Of a stretch of DNA of 64,000 nucleotides, positions 27,851-42,284 are shown in pieces. Position numbers and translations under genes: made by a program. Every line of letters starts with the position of its first letter. The stretch's first letter is position 1. The notes under the pieces are model-generated. The model saw only the letters and a program-made list of their open reading frames with translations. It was not told the DNA's origin and searched no databases. The stretch is from the NCBI GenBank assembly GCA_963726245.1, contig CAVSBT010000015.1, positions 192,001 through 256,000 of the forward strand, written 5' to 3'. This stretch comes from an uncultured Chloroflexia bacterium. GTDB lineage: Bacteria > Chloroflexota > Dehalococcoidia > DSTF01 > JALHUB01.

Positions 27851-29522
27851 TCAGGAGCCCTGAAGGTAGGAGCGGTAGTCGCTCAGGTGCAGATCGATGG
27901 TCTCCGGCAGGTGTTCCGTCACCTGCGTGAGGAGGTCCAGCGTGAGGTTCACCGCCTCGCGCGTCGTCGGCACCGAGGGGTCCCGGCGAAGGATGGTGTT
28001 CATCTCCAGGCAGGCGGCGCTCCGGAAGAGCTGGCGGAACAGGGTGAACTCCTCCCGCAGGCTGTCGGGGGTCTGCTGGCTGGAGAACAGCCTCTCCAGA
28101 ACCCGCTCATCGGCCCTCGCCGAGGGGCCATGACCGGCCTCTTGCAGCAGGCCGTTGATGAAGGCGCGCTCCTGGCTGTCATCCACGGCACGGTAGGCGT
28201 TGTAGGCCGTCTCCATGGTGCCCATGGGCGTGCGGCCCGCCAGCAGGTCGGCGACGAACTGGGCCTCGCTCAGACGGCGGAGGACGCGGTCGTCATCGGC
28301 GTCGCGACGGAGGAGGAAGACGCTGGTGAGGCGGAGAGGCGTCAGCGGGTTTGCGTAGACCCGCTCCTCGCCGAAGACGCGGCTAATGTCGAGCATGGCG
28401 CGGGCGTTGTCGAAGGCCATTAGACGGGCCAGTTCGTGGGCCATCTCCTCATGCGACACGTGCAGGCTGCCATCCAGCTCATTGACCGCGCGACTGAGGA
28501 GCAGTCGCCGGCGGTCCATGAACTCGGCGGTCACGTTGGGGCAGTTCTCCAGCTTCGACTGCATGAGGGCGCCGAGTGCGGCCGGGAAGCTCTCCACGAT
28601 GTTGCTGCGGAGGTAGAACCGCCGCTCAGAGATGTAGGCGTAGGCGGCAGGCGGCGCCTCGAAGTCTATCTCCTCGCCGGCAACGCTGCGCCGTCCGTTG
28701 TCGACTGCGAGGGTGTCCAGAGTGGTGCCCGCGGGGGCGCCGTTGGCGGCCAGCCAGGGGAGCACGCGATAGCCGCGCACCACGGAGCCGTCGGGGCTGC
28801 GGAGGCTCACCGGCGACACGCGCGTCCCATCGCGAAGGGCGACGGCGTAGCGCACGTACACCCAATCGTCGGAGTGGAAGGCGGCGCCCGGAAGACGCAT
28901 CAGACCGTAGGAGGCCGTCGACTTGCCGGTGCCCGTGGGGGCAATGAATAGAATGCCTTGGCCACCGGTGTCCACGGCAGCGCCGTGAATCGAGTGGATG
29001 CCGAACTCGTCGGCCAGGATCCGCCCCACGGCGCCCAGGACCCAGCTCTTGAGCTGGCCGTAGTAGGACGTGTTGAAGAAGACGATAGTGCTCTTCTCGC
29101 GGCTATAGTAGGCGGCCACGTCCTCAGGCACGTGGCCCAGGGCATAGACCATGACGGCGGGCTCGTCCGGGGCCGGCTTCCCTGCCACCCGCTGCCACTC
29201 GTCGGTGGCGAACCAGTTGTCGGTCCAGAAGTCGTATAGGTGCGAGAGGTTGGTGACGGCGCGGACGCGGACGCCGTGGATGACCACGTCGTGGACGCGG
29301 ACATCTTTGGCCTGGGCGGCGGCGTAGGCCTCGGCGCGTCCGATGAGAGCGTCGCGACTGGGCCGGGTCCCTGTCGAGCGCTTTGTCGTGTATGGAGGTG
29401 CGGCTCTTGGTGCGGGTGACGACGTTGCTGACGCCAATGGGCGCCCCGCCCCATTCGAGACTGTCGGGTACTGGCGGCGGCGGCCAGTCGTAGCCCGGAT
29501 CCTTCACCTGCTCGGCGACCAT
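27851..29522 (-). CDS. Uncharacterised P-loop protein of HPr-kinase/PEPCK-like type (frameshift near 29360)
   Basis: IHGAAV, APTGTGKST Walker A, SDDW; N-terminus MVAEQVKDPGYDW in another frame after an RBS. Confidence 0.7.
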
Positions 29523-29745
29523 GCTCTGCTCTTCCTGGCGGGGCCTTGTGTGCAACGGGTGGCCGCACTAGTGACTACATCTATCGTCAGCATAGTTGTT
29601 GTCGATGCCGCCTGTCAAGCCCCCTGGCGCGCAGTTTTATGGATCTGGGCGGTCTTGGGGGAAGTTGGGTCGTGGGAGCAGACCGTGATGCGCGCCACCA
29701 TGGGCACTGTTGCCGTAAGCCTGCGTGTCGTGGGCGTCTGCACGT

Positions 29746-29773
29746 TAAACAATGGGGGCGCTCCGGTCGATTA
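29746..29773 (+). promoter_or_regulatory. sigma28 (FliA/WhiG)-like promoter for the GGDEF gene
   Basis: TAAA-N16-GTCGATTA versus consensus TAAA-N15/16-GCCGATAA. Confidence 0.5.
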
Positions 29774-29807
29774 TGTATTGGGCAGGCCCATTTGGGAGAA
29801 AGCTCAC

Positions 29808-30677
29808 GTGCCGCTAGGTAATCCCCGGCGCCCGGATGCGCGTAGCCGCTGGCGGGCAGCCCTGGACAAGGACGACACCCGCGCAGGGCAAGGTACGCCT
29901 GTGCGGGGCAACCACGCTCAGATCGTGGCCCCATCTTCCGGACCTCCTGCGAAGGGCCTCTTGACCTTAGAAAGGGTTCTGGCCTTCGGTGTCTTGGCCT
30001 GGACGCTGGGCATCATACTCGCCATCTTCAACCAGGCGGACCAGCTCTCCCGGACTTCGGTCATCGGCGTTCTCCTGCTTCTGGGGCTCCTGGCCTTTAT
30101 CGCGGCGCTGGTGCTGATTGTGCCGCGGGTGCGGCCGGCAACGACCGAGCATGTCCTTGTGGAGGCCGCGGTCTGCGACCCGTTGACCGGCCTACCCAAC
30201 GAACGCTACCTTCTGCTGCGCCTTGAAGAAGAGATGGCACGGGCGCATCGAGATGAACGCCCGCTTGCCCTGGCAGTTATCGATATCAATGGCCTGGCGG
30301 TGATAAACGAGCAGCACGGTCGGGACTCCGGCGACGAGGTGCTCCGCCACGTAGCCAGAGTGTTGGAGTCGACCAAGCGAGCGTCTGACATCGTCGCCCG
30401 CCTGGGCGATGACGAGTTCGCTGTCATCCTCTCCGAATGCACGAACGAAGGAGCCCAGGCCTTTGTGCACCGGCTGACGGAGCGCCTGGCGAAGGAGCCC
30501 GCGGGCGCGCTCATCGAGGGCCGTCCTTCTCACATCTGGGTTGGAGTCTGCGCCGGGCTGGCCGACATGTGGCCGGATCAGGAGGCGCCGGCGAATTTCC
30601 TCGACCGTGCCCGAGCTGCTCTTGCCGACGACCGTGAAGAGCGCGAGCATCGACGTCACCTGTGGCGGACGGCGTAG
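29808..30677 (+). CDS. Membrane-anchored GGDEF-domain protein (GDDEF variant with RxxD I-site)
   Basis: Two TM helices, DPLTGLPN, GDEVL, RASDIVARLGDDEF; GTG start after gggagaaag. Confidence 0.88.
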   Translation: MPLGNPRRPDARSRWRAALDKDDTRAGQGTPVRGNHAQIVAPSSGPPAKGLLTLERVLAFGVLAWTLGIILAIFNQADQLSRTSVIGVLLLLGLLAFIAALVLIVPRVRPATTEHVLVEAAVCDPLTGLPNERYLLLRLEEEMARAHRDERPLALAVIDINGLAVINEQHGRDSGDEVLRHVARVLESTKRASDIVARLGDDEFAVILSECTNEGAQAFVHRLTERLAKEPAGALIEGRPSHIWVGVCAGLADMWPDQEAPANFLDRARAALADDREEREHRRHLWRTA

Positions 30678-30713
30678 CTGACACACATCCCATCCCCTTA
30701 GCACCTCAGGACT

Positions 30714-31247
30714 TCAACTTGCGGCGGCCTTTGTGCGCTCTCGTTCCCTGGTGACGGGATACTGCGCCCTCGCGCGCTGCACGACCCGGCCGATGCCTAC
30801 GAGCAGCGCTAGCGTTGCCTGGGCCTCTCGATCACCCCGGGACCGCGCGGCGGATCGCTCTTGGCCGGGGAACGCTGCCAGTCGCCCGAGAACCTCGCGG
30901 TGGGCGGCGCGTACCGAACGGCGGGCCTGCGGGTGCCGCGGCGCCCAGGCCCAGAGGTCCACTAGCAGGGCGCTCGTAACGTGACGCCGCGCGACGTCCG
31001 CGGCGGCGCGCGCTGGCAGACTCATCTCGCGCCGCAGCTCCTCCAGAGCCGCCTCCTGGAACACGGCCTCCTTGCTCGGGAAGTGATGATAGAAGCCGCC
31101 CTTTGAGACACCGGCCGCCCGGCAGATGTCGTCGACCGTCACAAAGCCAAAGCCCCGCAAGAGGAAGAGCGCCTTAGCAGCTTTGAGTAGCCTGGCGCGA
31201 GTCTGGCTGCCCCGCGAGGCCGGAACGAGGTGGCGGCGAACGTCCAT
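30714..31247 (-). CDS. TetR/AcrR family regulator
   Basis: TRARLLKAA...TVDDICRAAGVSKGGFYHHFPSKE HTH. Confidence 0.88.
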   Translation of the reverse strand: MDVRRHLVPASRGSQTRARLLKAAKALFLLRGFGFVTVDDICRAAGVSKGGFYHHFPSKEAVFQEAALEELRREMSLPARAAADVARRHVTSALLVDLWAWAPRHPQARRSVRAAHREVLGRLAAFPGQERSAARSRGDREAQATLALLVGIGRVVQRARAQYPVTRERERTKAAAS

Positions 31248-31393
31248 CACAGGATGTATCGTCGAAAAGCGGCGTGATCTGAAGCTGCGCACGTAGCACG
31301 GGGCGCCTGACGACGGGCCGGGAACGTTGCCTGAGGTTCTGGTTAGGGTAGCTTCAAACCTAGGGAAAACCCGCACTTAGCCGCGCAGAAGCC

Positions 31394-31446
31394 TTGACAA
31401 GCGAGACATAAGGGCCATAATACATACCGACGAGTCGGTATGTATT
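31394..31446 (+). promoter_or_regulatory. sigma70-type promoter overlapped by a perfect 28-bp TetR-type operator
   Basis: TTGACA(31394)-N16-CATAAT(31416); aatacataccgac-ga-gtcggtatgtatt at 31419-31446. Confidence 0.8.
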
Positions 31447-31512
31447 GGTGAGACGGACGGTAACGTAGGAAACCAAAGCACTAAGGGAACGGTTCAACCC
31501 GGAGGAGAAACG

Positions 31513-31611
31513 GTGAAAAAGAGACTGGGCCTTGCTCTCGTGGCCCTGGTTGCGTTGGTCATTGTGGCCGCGCAGCAGGCCCCGGTTCTGCTTTGGCGAG
31601 CGTGGGGTTAG
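31513..31611 (+). CDS. Unannotated 32-aa hydrophobic peptide MKKRLGLALVALVALVIVAAQQAPVLLWRAWG
   Basis: GGAGGAG RBS, GTG start, TAG stop, dedicated promoter upstream and terminator downstream; basic N-terminus and hydrophobic core. Confidence 0.75.
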   Translation: MKKRLGLALVALVALVIVAAQQAPVLLWRAWG

Positions 31612-31794
31612 CCCGTCGGCTAAGCAGGGCCGCATAGTCCTGAAGACTGGCTAATAGCGCCCCTGTCGACGCTGGTCCTGGCTAGCGTTGACAGGGCCTA
31701 GCCTACCGACTCATCAGGCCGCAAGCCACGCTAGCTCGGCGGGCGGGGCCGAGGTAGCGCGGTGTTGAGGCGACTGAACCTTCTGTCTCGCTGA

Positions 31795-31828
31795 GGAAAC
31801 GCCTCTGCCCACAGGGGCGTTTTCCTTT
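31795..31828 (+). terminator. Intrinsic terminator closing the peptide transcript, possibly bidirectional
   Basis: aaacgcctctg-ccca-caggggcgttt followed by tccttt; the G-U pair favours the plus strand. Confidence 0.7.
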
Positions 31829-31836
31829 GGCCCTGC

Positions 31837-33321
31837 TCACGCTGCCCGCCGCCTCTCCCCAGCCATGGCCTTCTCCTTGGACTCCCGCTGCACCCACTCG
31901 TCGTAGGCCTCCAGAAACGCCTCCACCACCTGGGGGTCGAACTGGGCGCCGCTATGCTTCACGATCTCGTCGTGAGCGGCCTCCCAGGGCAGGGCGCGCC
32001 GGTAGGGCCGGTCCGAGGTCATGGCGTCGAACGTGTCCGCCACGGCGAATATGCGGGCCCCAAGCGGTATGTCCTCGCCGGCCAGCGCGCGGGGGTATCC
32101 CTTGCCGTCGAAGCGCTCGTGGTGGCTGAGGACGACCTCGGCGGGGCCGCTCAGGAAGTGCACCCCCTTCAGCATCTCGTGCGCGATGGCGGGGTGGCGC
32201 CGCATCTCGTCCCACTCCTCGGGGGTGAGGGGCCCCGGCTTGTGAAGGATGAAGTCGGAGACGCCGATCTTGCCCACGTCATGGAGAAGGGCGGCCCGCT
32301 TCAGGTCCTCCCAGGCGAGTGTGTCCGGCTGGAACCCCACGCGGCGGGCGATGTCCATGGTGTACTCCATGACGCGGGTGGAGTGGCCCTTGGTCTCCCG
32401 GTCCCGGGCGTCCAGGGCGGTGACTAGCGCCTCCAGCGTGCCGTCATAGGTGTTTTTCAGCGTCTCCGTCATCTCCAGGATCTCGCGGTTAGCCTTCTCG
32501 AGATCCTCGTTCTTGCGCCGGAGGGCTACCACCGTCTCGGTAGTCCGTCCAACGTACTGCTTGATGGACAGTTGCATCATGATGGGCGGCGCCGCGAAGA
32601 CCAGGAGGCCGGTGACGCCGAGGGCGCGGTAGGCCATAGCCAGGGCCAGCCCGAGTAGGCCGAAGACCACGTAATGAGGCAAGATCCAGCGGTCCTTCTC
32701 CAGCCAGACGTCGAGCAGCGGGCGGCCGGTGGTCAGGCTCACGACCTGGTCCACCAAGTAGACGTTCACCCCGTAGGCCACGCCGGCCGCCACGAGGGCC
32801 GCTGGCAGCATGATGGGTCGTAGATCATCGCGTCCGCTGCCCGCCATGGCCTCGAAGGTGACGGCGGCGAGCGTGATAGCGATAGTGAGGTTCCCGACAT
32901 CAAAGGGCAGTCGGATGCTGAAGAAGTTGCGAGGTATGTGCCAGGCCACAATCGCGGTGGGCACGGCTATGACCACCCCGGCTGGGCCGTAGAGGACAGC
33001 CGCCGCGAAGGCAGGTATGAAGCTTACTGATAGGCGGGACTCGCCGTAGATGGGGACGGCAAGGCGGTCTGCAAGAATCGCCAAAAGGGTGAGGAGGGCC
33101 AACCCCGGGGCGTCGGAGGGGTCGAAGTGTGGGGCGTACCAGGCGATGAGCCCCACGCCGGCGGCGCTGACGGCGCCTATGTAGAGGCGGGCCGGCCAGC
33201 TCAGCGGCGGCTGGTCACGCTGCTGCTCAGCCTGCGCGTTGGCGGCCTTGCGGCGCAGAGGACGGGGCTCGGACCCCACTCCCTTGGCGCCCATAGCCCC
33301 AGGCCCTTTATCCAAGCCCAT
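31837..33321 (-). CDS. HD-GYP c-di-GMP phosphodiesterase with multi-pass (about 6-7 TM) membrane sensor domain
   Basis: Hydrophobic N-terminal half, coiled coil, TKGHSTRV, LLHDVGKI, HHERFDGKGYP, ADTFDAMTSDRPYR. Confidence 0.93.
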   Translation of the reverse strand: MGLDKGPGAMGAKGVGSEPRPLRRKAANAQAEQQRDQPPLSWPARLYIGAVSAAGVGLIAWYAPHFDPSDAPGLALLTLLAILADRLAVPIYGESRLSVSFIPAFAAAVLYGPAGVVIAVPTAIVAWHIPRNFFSIRLPFDVGNLTIAITLAAVTFEAMAGSGRDDLRPIMLPAALVAAGVAYGVNVYLVDQVVSLTTGRPLLDVWLEKDRWILPHYVVFGLLGLALAMAYRALGVTGLLVFAAPPIMMQLSIKQYVGRTTETVVALRRKNEDLEKANREILEMTETLKNTYDGTLEALVTALDARDRETKGHSTRVMEYTMDIARRVGFQPDTLAWEDLKRAALLHDVGKIGVSDFILHKPGPLTPEEWDEMRRHPAIAHEMLKGVHFLSGPAEVVLSHHERFDGKGYPRALAGEDIPLGARIFAVADTFDAMTSDRPYRRALPWEAAHDEIVKHSGAQFDPQVVEAFLEAYDEWVQRESKEKAMAGERRRAA

Positions 33322-33543: not shown

Positions 33544-34266
33544 TCAGGCGACCTCCTCCAGGGCGGGCTCCAGCCGGTGGCGCAGGGAAGCCAGGATCTT
33601 CTTGTGAAGCTGGCATATGCGCGACTCCGAGAGCCCCATCAGCGCCCCGATCTCGTGGAAGGGCATGGACTGCCCGTAGCGCATATAGAGGATGGAGCGC
33701 TCCCGTGACGACAGGGTGCCCATGGCGTCCTTCAAGAGACCCAGCGTGGCCCGGTGTTCCGTCGCCGTTGCCGGGTTGCCGAACTCGTCTTCATCGGCGG
33801 GATCCCAGATCAGGCCGGGATTGTCCGGTCGATCCTCCAGGCACTGCTCCAGGGAGACGACTTTGGAGCTTGAGCGAGAGCGGAGGACGTGCAGCTCGTC
33901 CAGGCTTAGGCCGAGGCGCAGCGCGATCTCCTTGTTGGTCGGCCAGCGTCCCAGTTGACAGGCCAGCTCCTGGGAGCCCTGTTCCAGCTCGCGGGCGCTG
34001 CGGCGCACAGAGCGAGGCAGGACGTCCTGCTTGCGGATCGCGTCAAGGATGGAGCCCCGTATGCGTCGCACCGCGAAGCTAGCGAAGCTGGTGCCGCGCT
34101 CGGGGTCAAAGCTGTCGACGGCTTGGATGAGCCCCTCGGTGCCATAGGCCATGGCATCATCTCGATCCAGGCCGTTTCTATTGCTCGTCTCCGATGACAT
34201 CCTGCCGACGACAAAGGCCACCAGCGGCATGTGACGTATGATCATCGCGTCTCGTTCTATCACCAT
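33544..34266 (-). CDS. FliA/WhiG family RNA polymerase sigma factor
   Basis: GLIQAVDSFDPERG, FAVRRIRGSILDAIRKQD, LGRWPT, EIGALMGLSESRICQLH; ATG after ggagg. Confidence 0.92.
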   Translation of the reverse strand: MVIERDAMIIRHMPLVAFVVGRMSSETSNRNGLDRDDAMAYGTEGLIQAVDSFDPERGTSFASFAVRRIRGSILDAIRKQDVLPRSVRRSARELEQGSQELACQLGRWPTNKEIALRLGLSLDELHVLRSRSSSKVVSLEQCLEDRPDNPGLIWDPADEDEFGNPATATEHRATLGLLKDAMGTLSSRERSILYMRYGQSMPFHEIGALMGLSESRICQLHKKILASLRHRLEPALEEVA

Positions 34267-34293
34267 CTCGCGCCTCCGGGTCGTCCGAGCGGC

Positions 34294-34328
34294 AAACAAG
34301 AGCCGCCTTCGGAATGACCGACGGCGGC
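34294..34328 (-). terminator. Riboswitch expression-platform terminator before the sigma gene
   Basis: Minus-strand gccgccgtcgg-tcatt-ccgaaggcggc followed by tcttgttt. Confidence 0.65.
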
Positions 34329-34926: not shown

Positions 34927-35622
34927 GTGAGGAGAGAACCTCTCACCAGGCAGGTGCAGAAGCAGCAGACGCGGGCTCTGCTCGTCAATGCTGCGCTGCG
35001 TGTCTTCGCCGAGCATGGCTACGAAGCGGCTACGGTGGAGGAGATCTCCGCCGCGGCCGGCTACTCCAAGGGGGCCTTCTACTTTCACTTCGGCAGCAAG
35101 GAAGACATCTTCTTGGAACTGCTGAAGCAGTGGACCGGCGAGCAGAGGGAGCGCCTGACAGCTTTCGACGACGCCACGCCGGCGGCAGCCGCTCTCTTGG
35201 AGGGCCTGGAGAGCTTCCTCTCCTACGAGGAGCGCGAGATTGTCTGGCCACGCCTGCTGGTGGAGTTCTGGGCTCAGGCCCGGCACCAAGAGGCCATCCG
35301 CCGTGGTCTGGGTCAGGCCTACGCAGCCTGGCGCCGGCTTCTGGCGCAGGCCTTCCGTCGCGCCGGCGACGCCGGGCTTCTCTCGCCGCAGTTCGAGCCG
35401 GACGACGCCGCTCGGCTGGTCCTGTCCACCCACGATGGGCTGGTTGTGGAGGCCTGCATCGACCCCGCGGCTGCCGGGAAGGTCTCTCTGCGGCGGGTGC
35501 TGGGTGCCCTGCTCGCCTATCTAGCCTCGCCCGCCGCCAAGGAGCTGCCTGAGGCGGCCCGACCGCTGGCTACAAAGAAGTCCGCGGCTGGGGCCCGCCG
35601 CTCTCGATCCTCCGCCGCCTGA
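34927..35622 (+). CDS. TetR/AcrR family regulator
   Basis: TRALLVNAALRVF...TVEEISAAAGYSKGAFYFHFGSKE. Confidence 0.92.
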   Translation: MRREPLTRQVQKQQTRALLVNAALRVFAEHGYEAATVEEISAAAGYSKGAFYFHFGSKEDIFLELLKQWTGEQRERLTAFDDATPAAAALLEGLESFLSYEEREIVWPRLLVEFWAQARHQEAIRRGLGQAYAAWRRLLAQAFRRAGDAGLLSPQFEPDDAARLVLSTHDGLVVEACIDPAAAGKVSLRRVLGALLAYLASPAAKELPEAARPLATKKSAAGARRSRSSAA

Positions 35623-38977: not shown

Positions 38978-41900
38978 CTATAGGCCGCCTACCATCTCCT
39001 CCGCCATCTCCACGTGCTTGGGCATGCCGATCTGGCGGTACATGGCGATGGCTTCCGTGAGCAGCTCGCGGGCCTTGCTCGCGGTCGCCGGGGGCGTCGC
39101 GGTCGATGAGCATGCGGGCGTACCAGCGCCGCACCTCCGGCTGCTCGATGACGATCGGTATCTCATGGGCCTGGCGCAGGGCCGTCTGGTAGTGCTCCTC
39201 CGCCTTCTCCCACTGGCCGCCGGCACGCCGCCGCGATGCCGGCCACGGTCTGAAAGAGCGGACAACCAGACACGAGGGGGCCGGAATCGATGGCCTCCAG
39301 GACCAGGGGGTAGAGCTTCGCGGCCTCCTCTCGTTCACCGAGGACGGCCAGCCCTTCGACCGCCGCGAAGAGCATCCCCAGGCGCCCACGGTGTTGGCGC
39401 GGCCGGGGCGCGGAAGGCCTTTCCGCCGCTCCTCCAGCGCGGCCAGGGCTGCATCCTTGTCGCCCATGTACCCCTGGCACAGGAAGAGCCCGGCCCAGTC
39501 GTCACCCGGCCAGCACGCCCGGGGGCTCCAGCCTGGCGCGCCTCCTGGAAGCTCTCCAGCGCCTGGTCCCAGCGGCCCCTCCAGAAATGCGCCAGGCCAA
39601 GGTAGGTGTAGGAGTTGGAGACCCAGGGCATGCCGGCGCTGCGACATAGCTCCAGGTCCGCCCTGGCGAACTCCTCGAATCTGTCGATGTCGCCCGTCAG
39701 GCTGAGATCGTTGAAGCCGCTACCGCGCCTGACCGCCAGGAGGGCCTGCAGGTGGCCCAGGCGCTCGGCCAGCGGCTCCGCCTCCTCGGCTATCCTGGCG
39801 GCTTCATCGAAGCGGCCGAGAAAACCGAGGGCGTACTGGGTGCCGTACAGCGTGTCGGCCAGAACCCAGAGGTCGCCGGCGGAGCGCAAGAGCTCGGCCG
39901 CCCGCAGGCCGGCGTCGACCGCTTCCCGCGGCTGCAGGTACCACAGGTTCATGTTTGCCCTCGCTGACAGGACGTATCCGAGCAGTCGCTCGTCGCCCAA
40001 CTCCTGGCCCATGGCCAGGGCCCGGTCCAGCGGCGGCTGGGCGGCATCATAATCGCCGCAATAGTACAGGAGCACGCCCTCGATCATTAGGAGGCGGCAG
40101 CGGGCGACGCTCGCCTCCTCGCCCACGGAGGCGAGGCCGCGGCGGGCGACCTCTAACCCTTCGTCCCAGCGGGCTGCATAGGCCAGCAGTGCGCCTAACC
40201 CGTTGCAGACGCGGGCCAGCGCCTGGGCGTCGCCCAGCTTCTCGTAGGTGTCCAGCGCCTCCCGCCAGTCAGTCAGCGCCTCCTCCCAGCGGCCCAGGCT
40301 GCGCAGGGCCAGCCCCCGCTTGAAGAGCAGGTCGGCCCGCGCCCGCCGGTCTTCGGCTGGCTGCAAGGAGAGGGCGTTCTCGTAGTGGCGCAGGGCGTCC
40401 TCGAAGGCGGCGGCAGCGAGGGCCTGGTCGCCAGCCAGCGCCAGGTAGCGCACCGTCTTCTCGGGGTCGGCGGCGGCCCCGGCCTGGTTGAGGTGGTAGG
40501 CCAGGTCGGCGGCGTGCTCTTCGATGGACCGGGCAGTAGGCCCGCTCGATGGCCTCCGCCACCCGCAGGTGCAGCCGCTGGCGTCGGGGCAGGGACAGAG
40601 CGCTGACCAGCGTCTGGCGGATCAGCTCGTGGGTGAAGGTGAAGCGGGCTTGGGGACCGTCGCTGGCGGCGGTGATAAGGCGGGCCCGCTCCGCCTCGTC
40701 GACGGCGTCCAGCAGGGCATCTGTCTGAACCTCGCCCAGAGCATCGAGCAGCTCGAAGCTGAAGCCACGGCCGATAACGGCGGCGGCGGTGAGTACCCGC
40801 CGGCAGTCCTCGCAGACGCGCTCCAGCCGACGGCCGATGACCAGGCGGACCCCCTCCGGCACGTCCAGCTCGCCTACGCGGAGGTCTGCGCGCCAGCGGC
40901 CCTGGGCGTCGAACAGCTTGCCCTCCTCGGCCAGGTGCTGGAACACCTCCTCCACGAAGAAGGGGTTGCCCTCCGTCTCAGCGTAGACGGCCTGCACCAG
41001 CGGGGCGGGCGGCTCCTGGCCGCTCAGGGCCCGGAGCATGGCCGCCACGCCGTCTTGGGGCAGCCGCCTGAGGGCGATGCGGTGGGCCAGGCGCTGGCGG
41101 AGGAGGCCCTCCAGGGCCCTGGCCAGGGGGCGGCCCACGTCCAGCTCCACGTCTCGGTAGGTGCCCAGGATGAGGACGGGCACCTCGCGGAGCTGCTGAG
41201 CGATGTGCTGGAGCAGCAGGAGGGTGGAGTCGTCGGCCCAGTGCAGGTCGTCCAGCACGAGGAGGAGAGGCTGGGCTCGGGCGGCACGCGCCAGGAACTC
41301 CCGCACACTGTTCAACAGGTAGTGGCGTTCCTGCTCCGGTGGCAGCTCCAGGGGCGGCGGTATGTCGGGAAAGAGGCGGCGCAGCTCCGGCAGGAGCTTG
41401 GCCACCTCCGGCGCCGAATCGCCCAGGGTCTCGCGGAGGGCCGGCGGCGCGATCACCTGGGCCGCGCTCTCCAGGATCTCCACGAAGGCGATGTAGGGCG
41501 GCGCCCCTTCCATCTCGTAGCAGTGGCCGCTCCAGGCCAGTGCTCCGCGCTGGCGGGCCTCGGCCATCAGCTCCTCGGCCAGCCGCGTCTTGCCGACACC
41601 GGGCTCGCCGCCGATCATGACCAGGGCGCCCTGGCCGCGAATCGACTGGTCCAAGAGGCGGCGCAGGTCGGCCCGCTCCGCCTCCCGCCCCACAAAGGGC
41701 GTGCGTTCAGCAACCGCCGGCCCGGCAGTCGGGGCCTCCTTCCGCCAGACGACCTCGTACAGGCGCCACCGCTCCGGGAAGCCCTTGAGGCGGAAGCGGC
41801 CGCGGTCGACCAGTTCCACGTTCTTGGGACGTCCCAGGACCGCCCGCACAGCCTCGGATATCAGTATCTGGCCGCCCTTGGCCTTGGCCGCAACGCGAGC

Positions 41901-42284
41901 AGCGGCATTCACCGTCTCGCCAAAGAGGTCCCGGTCCTCCTCGATGACCTCGCCGGTGTTCAGGCCGATGCGCACCCGCACTTGGTCATCCGCAGGTTGC
42001 CGCAGGTTGTGCCCATAGAGCGCTCGCTGAATGGACGCGGCGCAGGCCACGGCACGCCGCGCCGACCCGAAGGCCACCATGAAGCCGTCACCTATCGACT
42101 TCACCTCGCAGCCGCTGTGCTGCCCCACTTGCTGCCGCACTAGCTCGCGCTGGGCGCGGAGGATCGCGTGGGCGACATCATCGCCCCGGCGTGTCGTCAG
42201 GTCAGTGGAGCCCTCAACGTCGGTGAAGAGGACGGTAACGGTGCCCTCGGGAAGATCCTGAGCCACGGCAGATGATCCCCGCAC
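38978..42284 (-). CDS. Class III nucleotide cyclase + AAA/STAND-type ATPase + TPR protein (frameshifted)
   Basis: VLFTDVEGST, GDGFMVAF, VNAAARV; FVGREAE, GEPGVGKT, LDDLHWAD, GNPFF; TPR-like helices continuing in later frames. Confidence 0.85.

Follow-up and report, generated by a model that had tools for sequence, protein, structure and literature searches.

A tryptophan-tailed micro-ORF under a predicted TetR-type operator, convergent with a membrane HD-GYP gene in Chloroflexota, as a candidate signalling peptide gene

What does a reading frame of only 32 codons encode when it stands under a promoter and an operator-like palindrome of its own, between a TetR-family regulator gene and the gene of a membrane HD-GYP c-di-GMP phosphodiesterase? 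This question is raised by a locus within the window, that is, the whole stretch of 64,000 nucleotides that was analysed and to which all window coordinates refer. A sequence-only reading had taken this short open reading frame (sORF) for the precursor of an exported or membrane-tethered signal peptide whose tail is sensed by the membrane domain of the neighbouring HD-GYP protein, with a type I toxin among the alternatives. Neither the 32-aa peptide nor the 91-aa minus-strand frame at 31360-31635 gave any match in Pfam, and the protein atlas returned no match above 0.78 for the peptide. The system as a whole is absent from Pfam, NCBIfam and Rfam, and searches of the literature on the operator half-site, MASE9, HD-GYP peptides and c-di-GMP sORFs found no description of it.

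The signals for transcription and translation that had been proposed for this locus were all recovered (Table 1). Direct reading and a consensus scan both confirmed the TTGACA-N16-CATAAT promoter, which has 11 of 12 consensus matches and is the sole promoter-like site found by that scan between 30500 and 32500 (shuffled sequences gave a mean of 0.1). Its TTGACA element is invariant in all 15 aligned relatives of family f4 and is also found in relatives of family f1, to which the window belongs (here and below, f denotes a family, g a genus, G a genome and L a locus). The palindrome placed over the predicted start site proved to have perfect 13-bp arms and to cover both the final 3 bases of the -10 element and the expected start of transcription. 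The GGAGGAG ribosome-binding site and the 32-codon ORF with its GTG start were both read at the positions given for them, and a site of the GGAG or GGAGG type, at the same spacing, precedes the sORF in 29 out of 29 relatives that have it. At the distal end, the convergent HD-GYP gene has its stop codon 8 nt beyond a terminator-like hairpin, and a hairpin occupies the equivalent terminator position in f4 relatives.

Table 1. Features of the sORF locus and its neighbourhood in the window.
Feature	Coordinates	Strand	Details
GGDEF diguanylate cyclase gene	29343..30677	+	On the other side of TetR-A
TetR-A, TetR-family regulator gene	30714..31376	-	Divergent from the sORF promoter; TetR_N E=1.7e-17
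Sigma-70-type promoter	31394..31421	+	-35 TTGACA 31394-31399, N16, -10 CATAAT 31416-31421
Putative TetR-type operator palindrome	31419..31446	.	Perfect arms 31419-31431 and 31434-31446, 13 bp each, 2-bp spacer
5' arm of predicted long-range closing helix	31447..31460	+	RNAalifold, window and two relatives
Shine-Dalgarno sequence GGAGGAG	31501..31507	+	5 nt 5' of GTG 31513
sORF	31513..31611	+	32 codons, GTG start; signal-peptide-like N-terminus and Q-A-P...Trp-rich tail
Structured 3' untranslated part (predicted)	31612..31792	+	Closing-helix 3' arm 31779-31792 and stretch pairing with the Shine-Dalgarno sequence
Terminator hairpin and T-run	~31795-31829	+	Between the convergent genes
Membrane HD-GYP c-di-GMP phosphodiesterase gene	31837..33321	-	494 aa; MASE9-like N-terminal domain; convergent with the sORF
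FliA/WhiG-type sigma factor gene	33544..34299	-	Directly upstream of the HD-GYP gene, same strand
TetR-B, second TetR gene	34927..35622	+	BetI-type C-terminal domain; candidate alternative operator binder

Relatives of the locus were collected from three independent anchors, namely the operator, the HD-GYP protein and metagenome contigs. The operator-anchored set comprised 30 loci fetched from the 33 operator-bearing genomes among the 93 of the order. An HD-GYP gene identified by tblastn is convergent on the far side in 28 of these loci, and 29 of them contain, starting 44-77 nt past the operator, an ORF that is preceded by a Shine-Dalgarno sequence and carries Trp among its last four residues. 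L144 in genome G055 has the operator without the sORF, no promoter match and a different HD protein, and in G019 the HD-GYP gene and the operator-sORF unit are found on separate contigs. For the HD-GYP-anchored set, an orthologue was found at E<=1e-60 in 68 of the 401 genomes sampled across the class, and the 30 loci fetched included 18 genomes new to the collection. The sORF occupies the same convergent position in twelve of these 18, seven belonging to f4 (including G060), four to f2 (4/4) and one to f34. The four f2 genomes all have the sORF and the HD-GYP gene; the palindrome was not found in them, nor was a TetR or GGDEF gene detected alongside, and the surviving pairing is that of the sORF with the sigma-HD-GYP unit. 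Metagenomes contributed seven contigs with a near-full-length HD-GYP relative, and the sORF is present in all six that extend downstream.

In total, the sORF is kept in 41 genomes over a length range of 6 to 34 codons, and the expectation that similar short ORFs accompany homologous HD-GYP genes was borne out, the sORF being a near-constant convergent neighbour of the orthologous gene. No sORF was detected at the HD-GYP loci of G451, G429, G210, G338 and G193, which make up five of the six orthologue loci examined outside the order, nor at that of G025, the single locus examined of f5. The latter family offers an observation in its own right: at L191 (G025), the sigma-HD-GYP unit and a convergent GGDEF gene are present with nothing like TetR-A or the sORF between them, and the TetR-A/sORF cassette is apparently lost from f5 or was never inserted there. 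A profile built from ten long forms of the peptide matched only 6 small proteins among 1.84 billion representatives, and all 6 end directly after the Trp-rich tail. The synteny itself could largely reflect inherited gene order within one order.

Substitution patterns speak for the sORF as a coding sequence. Conservation in the alignment of 15 f4 sequences falls on the two promoter elements (-35 and -10), the operator, the Shine-Dalgarno sequence, six codons and the stem of the terminator; neither the leader nor the spacer after the stop codon is conserved. The invariant Arg of this family is written CGC, CGA, CGG or CGT, and the Ile/Val position uses six codons. Variable columns at the first, second and third codon positions number 7, 5 and 17 in the group of the window, 5, 1 and 10 in g8, and 1, 3 and 4 in f3, and the start codon may be ATG, GTG or TTG at the same site in different genomes. 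The synonymous codons, together with the excess of variation at third positions, indicate selection on the amino acids. RNA structure may account for part of the apparent peptide conservation in g2, where a predicted hairpin joins the start-codon region to the His and Trp codons, and where a change from Trp to Phe goes together with one from C to A on the opposite strand of the hairpin. From these patterns, the sORF is very likely a real translated gene, and it probably encodes a real, unannotated signalling peptide.

The predicted peptides come in long and short forms. Most f1 genera, among them that of the window, have long forms, as do f3 and some metagenome contigs. All ten have an N-terminus bearing one to three Lys or Arg residues and contain 11-18 consecutive uncharged residues; they share an invariant Gln, usually within Q-A-P, and a tail in which Leu or Ile is followed by Trp, Arg and Phe. 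The layout that had been described for the window's peptide, with a basic N-terminus, a hydrophobic core and a Trp-rich tail, is therefore confirmed and conserved in the long forms. A rule-based scan located small residues at positions -3 and -1 of a possible cleavage site at residues 17-20 in nine of the ten long forms, the 19-residue form being without such a site, and cleavage at these predicted sites (by this heuristic, not SignalP) would leave 11-14 residues. The product of the window looks like a 32-residue pre-peptide made of a putative Sec signal peptide and a hydrophobic, aromatic tail of about 12 residues, and the long form may be exported and cleaved.

Short forms predominate among the homologues, as 19 of the 29 operator-anchored peptides have 6-9 residues and neither a signal peptide nor a membrane helix. 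The g2 peptides consist of 7 residues only and end in H-W-W or H-W-F; those of f4 have 6-9 residues with the consensus M-F-R-[IV]-x-W, one f4 genome encoding a 19-residue intermediate; and the f2 peptides, 7-8 residues long, have acidic residues after G-W. No residue other than Trp is universal. The tails otherwise differ considerably between families, and the window's own tail is unlike the tails of its closest relatives. Of the exported or membrane-tethered precursor envisaged in the sequence-only reading, the signal-peptide-like character of the long forms stands, but since most homologues possess neither signal peptide nor helix, a mechanism valid for all forms cannot rest on Sec export or membrane tethering.

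The 26-nt core of the palindrome found no match in 100 shuffles of the window, and with up to 3 mismatches it occurs a single time in the 2.68-Mb assembly. Allowing up to 2 mismatches, it is present in 33 of the 93 genomes of the order, distributed as 16/17 in f1, 2/2 in f3, 12/36 in f4, 2/21 in f2 and 0/16 in f5. At least 119 stretches, belonging to many phyla, contain the same 22-bp palindrome. Among the matches listed, 68 of 119 have the start of a TetR-like gene less than 500 bp away; 67 of these 68 genes read away from the palindrome, and 65 of the 68 operator-adjacent TetR genes of other phyla match TetR-B better than TetR-A. Furthermore, the TetR regulator SACE_1906 of Saccharopolyspora erythraea was footprinted on sites containing the half-site core ATACCGAC (PMC12890868). 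The two systems have this half-site core in common and an intergenic operator beside a TetR gene; they differ in that the gene controlled here would be a micro-ORF, not an enzyme or efflux gene, and in that two TetR paralogues are candidate binders here. The recurrent pairing of palindrome and TetR gene, together with the half-site footprint, supports the earlier claim, and the assignment of the palindrome as a putative TetR-type operator, with TetR-A or TetR-B as candidate binder, is well supported.

In TetR-A, the helix-turn-helix falls at residues 63-109 of the longest frame, so that the true start is probably ATG 31247, giving a protein of 177 aa; its orthologues have 167-214 aa. A tblastn match to the TetR protein of the window adjoins the operator in 22 of 30 related loci. 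Five g2 genomes have no TetR-A, and the best TetR match there is the TetR-B orthologue, about 3.5 kb away.

The palindrome also occurs in another setting. One alphaproteobacterial MAG (L015, L051, L052, L056, L068, L071, L088, L100 and L116) and one Bacteroidales MAG (L014, L025 and L041) carry the same 22-bp sequence on many contigs; its flanks are A-runs and T-runs or longer inverted repeats in both MAGs. At 8 of the 9 alphaproteobacterial and all 3 Bacteroidales sites, no TetR-like gene was detected within 500 bp. These copies look like a dispersed hairpin or terminator-type repeat, not an operator.

The HD-GYP protein of the window matches HD_5 (E=1.6e-37) and has an HD domain with the HHE..DG.GYP motif, whose H-H-E and G-Y-P residues are invariant across 20 orthologues. 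Its N-terminus matches MASE9 (PF20972) with 15.8 bits, below the cut-off of 24.3; among the 20 orthologues, 12 are matched at E<=1 (best 6.7e-8), and five exceed the cut-off. From this weak match, the N-terminal region may be a divergent MASE9 membrane sensor domain, the window protein itself being sub-threshold. A sigma-70 family gene is found at the position equivalent to that of the FliA/WhiG-type gene in 17 of 20 related neighbourhoods, and in 21 of 30 related loci tblastn places GGDEF matches near the operator.

Several further observations concern the surrounding genes. At 444 aa, the longest GGDEF frame of the window exceeds its orthologues (285-294 aa) by about 150 residues and overlaps a 528-aa minus-strand frame at 27851-29437, for which only a weak HprK-like P-loop match was obtained. 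Upstream of the GGDEF gene, g2 and f4 genomes encode a conserved protein of 181-187 aa without a Pfam match (L168:4439-4984, L171:6723-7283, L174:6768-7331, L180:2773-3324), which may belong to the same module. In g5 and g8, TetR-A does not stand beside GGDEF; downstream of it, in the same orientation, comes a gene for a family-5 solute-binding protein of the oligopeptide/dipeptide type (L165:5850-7553, L166:5717-7453, L167:2582-4250), apparently split into two frames in G010. At L143 (G036), about five tandem GC-rich hairpin-like units of about 45 nt lie between the sORF terminator and the HD-GYP stop codon and extend the intergenic region to 400 nt. Finally, the minus strand of the window holds another pair of signalling genes at 39335-42284, about 8 kb from the sORF: the first encodes a fusion of an adenylate/guanylate cyclase with an AAA_16/STAND-type ATPase, the second a TPR protein.

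We propose, as the best explanation of the locus but one that we place slightly short of an even chance, that the sORF encodes a TetR-gated micropeptide modulating the MASE9-HD-GYP phosphodiesterase. A TetR-family repressor, TetR-A or TetR-B, would sit on the palindrome over the start site and keep the sigma-70-type promoter shut. Once released, the promoter would drive a short, terminated transcript whose sole payload conserved across families is the Trp-tailed ORF with its Shine-Dalgarno sequence, and most relatives would produce the tail alone, as a leaderless peptide of 6-9 residues. The lipophilic Trp/Arg tail would then partition into the membrane and modulate the MASE9 sensor domain, so that the chain would run from a TetR ligand through the peptide to the control of c-di-GMP breakdown.

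The steps of this proposal differ in strength. A functional tie between the sORF and the HD-GYP gene is, to judge from gene order, rather likely, because their convergent adjacency is invariant, including in lineages without the TetR and GGDEF neighbours, and the peptide may accordingly be pictured as acting on the HD-GYP protein. That the peptide is a direct ligand of MASE9 is appreciably more doubtful. A lipophilic ligand would fit the domain because the authors of MASE9 propose that it binds its ligand within the membrane (bioRxiv 10.1101/2021.11.05.467447). An intramembrane lipophilic ligand could also reconcile the exported long forms with the leaderless short ones. Long-form tails would be delivered outside and leaderless peptides made inside the cell, and the binding site would therefore need access from two sides, or the cell an exporter. 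We consider it unlikely that leaderless hexapeptides and longer, Sec-exported homologues are interchangeable natural ligands of MASE9. A complex prediction for HD-GYP residues 40-290 (20-row alignment) with the peptide (10-row alignment), run without controls, gave 0.01, the mark being 0.32, and is given no weight in either direction.

One alternative makes the RNA itself the product. It would act in trans as a small RNA, or else it would target the convergent fliA-HD-GYP transcript by read-through, by antisense pairing or by way of the terminator that both share, and translation of the mini-ORF would merely tune RNA folding or stability. In f1 and f3, the sORF lies inside a transcript of 300-450 nt, closed by a predicted helix in which the first bases past the operator pair with bases just before the terminator. 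RNAalifold, applied to three genus groups with different arm sequences, recovered the closing helix in each of them, and in f1 the helix reached z<=-3 against dinucleotide shuffles in 11 of 17 sequences, five others ranging from -0.3 to -2.8. The window's own helix, at z=-0.8, is no better than shuffles and is retained here only because of its relatives. The Shine-Dalgarno sequence and the start codon are predicted to be paired; in the group of the window, the former would pair with a conserved downstream stretch, and the Trp codons with sequence just past the stop codon, which changes together with the peptide tail. In g2, RNAalifold predicted 79 pairs from 8 sequences, 16 of them with compensatory changes. 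The invariant convergent orientation of the sORF and the HD-GYP gene would suit an RNA acting on the opposite transcript as well.

Traces of the transcript itself are in line with this alternative. Contigs of 151-191 nt with 1-6 differences, from three metatranscriptome libraries of two studies, map to 31568-31791 and thus mainly to the untranslated 3' part; no contig of the same libraries matched the flanking genes at >=95% identity. These contigs, which show neither strand nor ends, are a weak hint that the transcript is abundant, and because Logan contigs are fragmentary, the absence of cover over 31470-31563 is uninformative. Against an RNA product stands the transcript of f4 and f2, which is only about 130-150 nt long, has no such structure, and keeps its codons conserved with its non-coding parts unconserved. 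Moreover, synonymous codons at invariant residues favour a peptide, and in the window a terminator separates the two genes. Rfam searches of the window region and seven related loci at permissive E-values matched no family, returning only sub-threshold, chance-like matches. We therefore regard an RNA product as quite unlikely.

A second alternative keeps the peptide and changes its receptor: in the manner of SHP/Rgg and ComS/ComR, an exported pheromone would be re-imported, bind the TetR protein and induce its own promoter, the c-di-GMP genes being neighbours or targets. In its favour, the operator occurs nowhere else in the genome than at the sORF, which is divergent from a TetR gene, and the long forms have an exportable appearance in the rule-based scan. 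In 3 of 20 neighbourhoods (G005, G008 and G010), the family-5 solute-binding protein gene that follows TetR-A on the same strand would be a candidate for re-import, but this Opp-like gene occurs in two genera only. An artificial Trp-rich peptide is known to induce TetR; no natural TetR protein that binds a peptide is known to us. TetR-A is, moreover, missing from the five g2 genomes, and the four f2 genomes retain the sORF and the HD-GYP gene without the operator or a detectable adjacent TetR gene. A pheromone sensed by TetR is about as unlikely as an RNA product on this evidence.

The type I toxin that had been kept as an alternative, or a membrane-perturbing Trp/Arg peptide, silenced by a folded mRNA, turned out to be a poor fit. 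The long forms are short and hydrophobic, and the pairing of the 5' and 3' ends into a panhandle, with the Shine-Dalgarno sequence paired, resembles hok-type mRNAs, whose full-length form is inert. Homologues of 6-9 residues, however, cannot form a membrane helix, and hexapeptides cannot span the membrane. The consensus scan of 30500-32500 found no antisense promoter-like site on the minus strand, although such a scan cannot exclude one, and the gene is single-copy, fixed beside signalling genes, and neither mobile nor duplicated. A toxin is thus highly improbable.

The same degree of improbability applies to a leader peptide that senses Trp or arrests the ribosome and so controls downstream termination. 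Trp as the one universal residue, the tandem Trp codons of many f1 forms and the terminator 3' of the ORF are what such a leader would have, but the model fails because there is no gene to control: no co-directional downstream gene exists in the window or in relatives in which the interval from the sORF to the HD-GYP gene was read through. In addition, a single Trp codon is the rule in f4 and f2, the stretch from stop codon to terminator varies and has no conserved alternative pairing, and residues other than Trp are constrained too, such as the invariant Arg. That the ORF is a mere chance frame within conserved intergenic regulatory DNA is scarcely credible. One could cite the very short frame, the many open frames that high-GC DNA provides and the lack of any family or annotation; but 41 genomes retain an open frame with a Trp tail and a Shine-Dalgarno sequence at constant distance, through lengths of 6-34 codons, and variation is in excess at third codon positions.

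Returning to the micropeptide proposed to modulate the HD-GYP enzyme, its locus can be set beside three kinds of known systems. With SHP/Rgg, ComS-XIP/ComR and Phr/PapR it shares an unannotated mini-ORF adjoining a transcription factor gene, and a peptide with a basic N-terminus, a hydrophobic stretch and an aromatic-rich C-terminal active part; some XIPs carry a double-Trp motif. It differs from them in that the adjacent regulator is of the TetR family and not an RRNPP/Rgg protein with TPR repeats, in that many members are leaderless hexa- or heptapeptides, and in that the constant partner is the HD-GYP enzyme. No RRNPP/Rgg receptor of the TPR type was found among the scanned neighbours (TetR, GGDEF, HD-GYP and sigma), the TPR gene at 39335-40453 being 8 kb off.

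The likeness to MgrB-PhoQ and SafA-PhoQ lies in the peptide, which is about 30 residues long and has a single hydrophobic helix, and in the proposed action on the membrane domain of a signalling enzyme. In those systems, however, the transmembrane helix is needed, whereas it is dispensable in most homologues here, and the proposed target here is a c-di-GMP phosphodiesterase and not a histidine kinase. Since an RRNPP receptor is lacking and the helix is dispensable, the sORF locus falls outside both the pheromone and the small-modulator families as these are defined. MccA, the 7-codon precursor of microcin C, has homologues with N-terminal extensions of variable length and a fixed C-terminal Asn. 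The sORF family resembles it as a ribosomal heptapeptide gene with a variable N-terminal extension and a fixed C-terminal residue, which here is Trp and not Asn, and neither an MccB-type adenylating enzyme nor another maturase was found among the scanned neighbours. On the sequence evidence, we rate the sORF as belonging among the regulatory or signalling micropeptides.

To our knowledge, the MASE-type membrane domains of c-di-GMP enzymes are orphan sensors to which no ligand has been assigned. A genetically linked peptide of 6-12 residues provides a concrete, synthesisable ligand candidate for such a domain and, if short and long forms are indeed interchangeable ligands, would be the first ligand assigned to MASE9. 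Its gene would then be among the smallest conserved signalling genes known. Within the family, the coding sequence appears to have shrunk from 34 codons for a putatively secreted precursor to 6 codons without a leader, with promoter, operator, ribosome-binding site and partner gene kept, which bears on the minimal size of conserved bacterial genes and on what gene callers miss. For the Chloroflexota, it would mean that a metabolite sensed by a TetR protein is linked to c-di-GMP turnover and to flagellar sigma-factor control.
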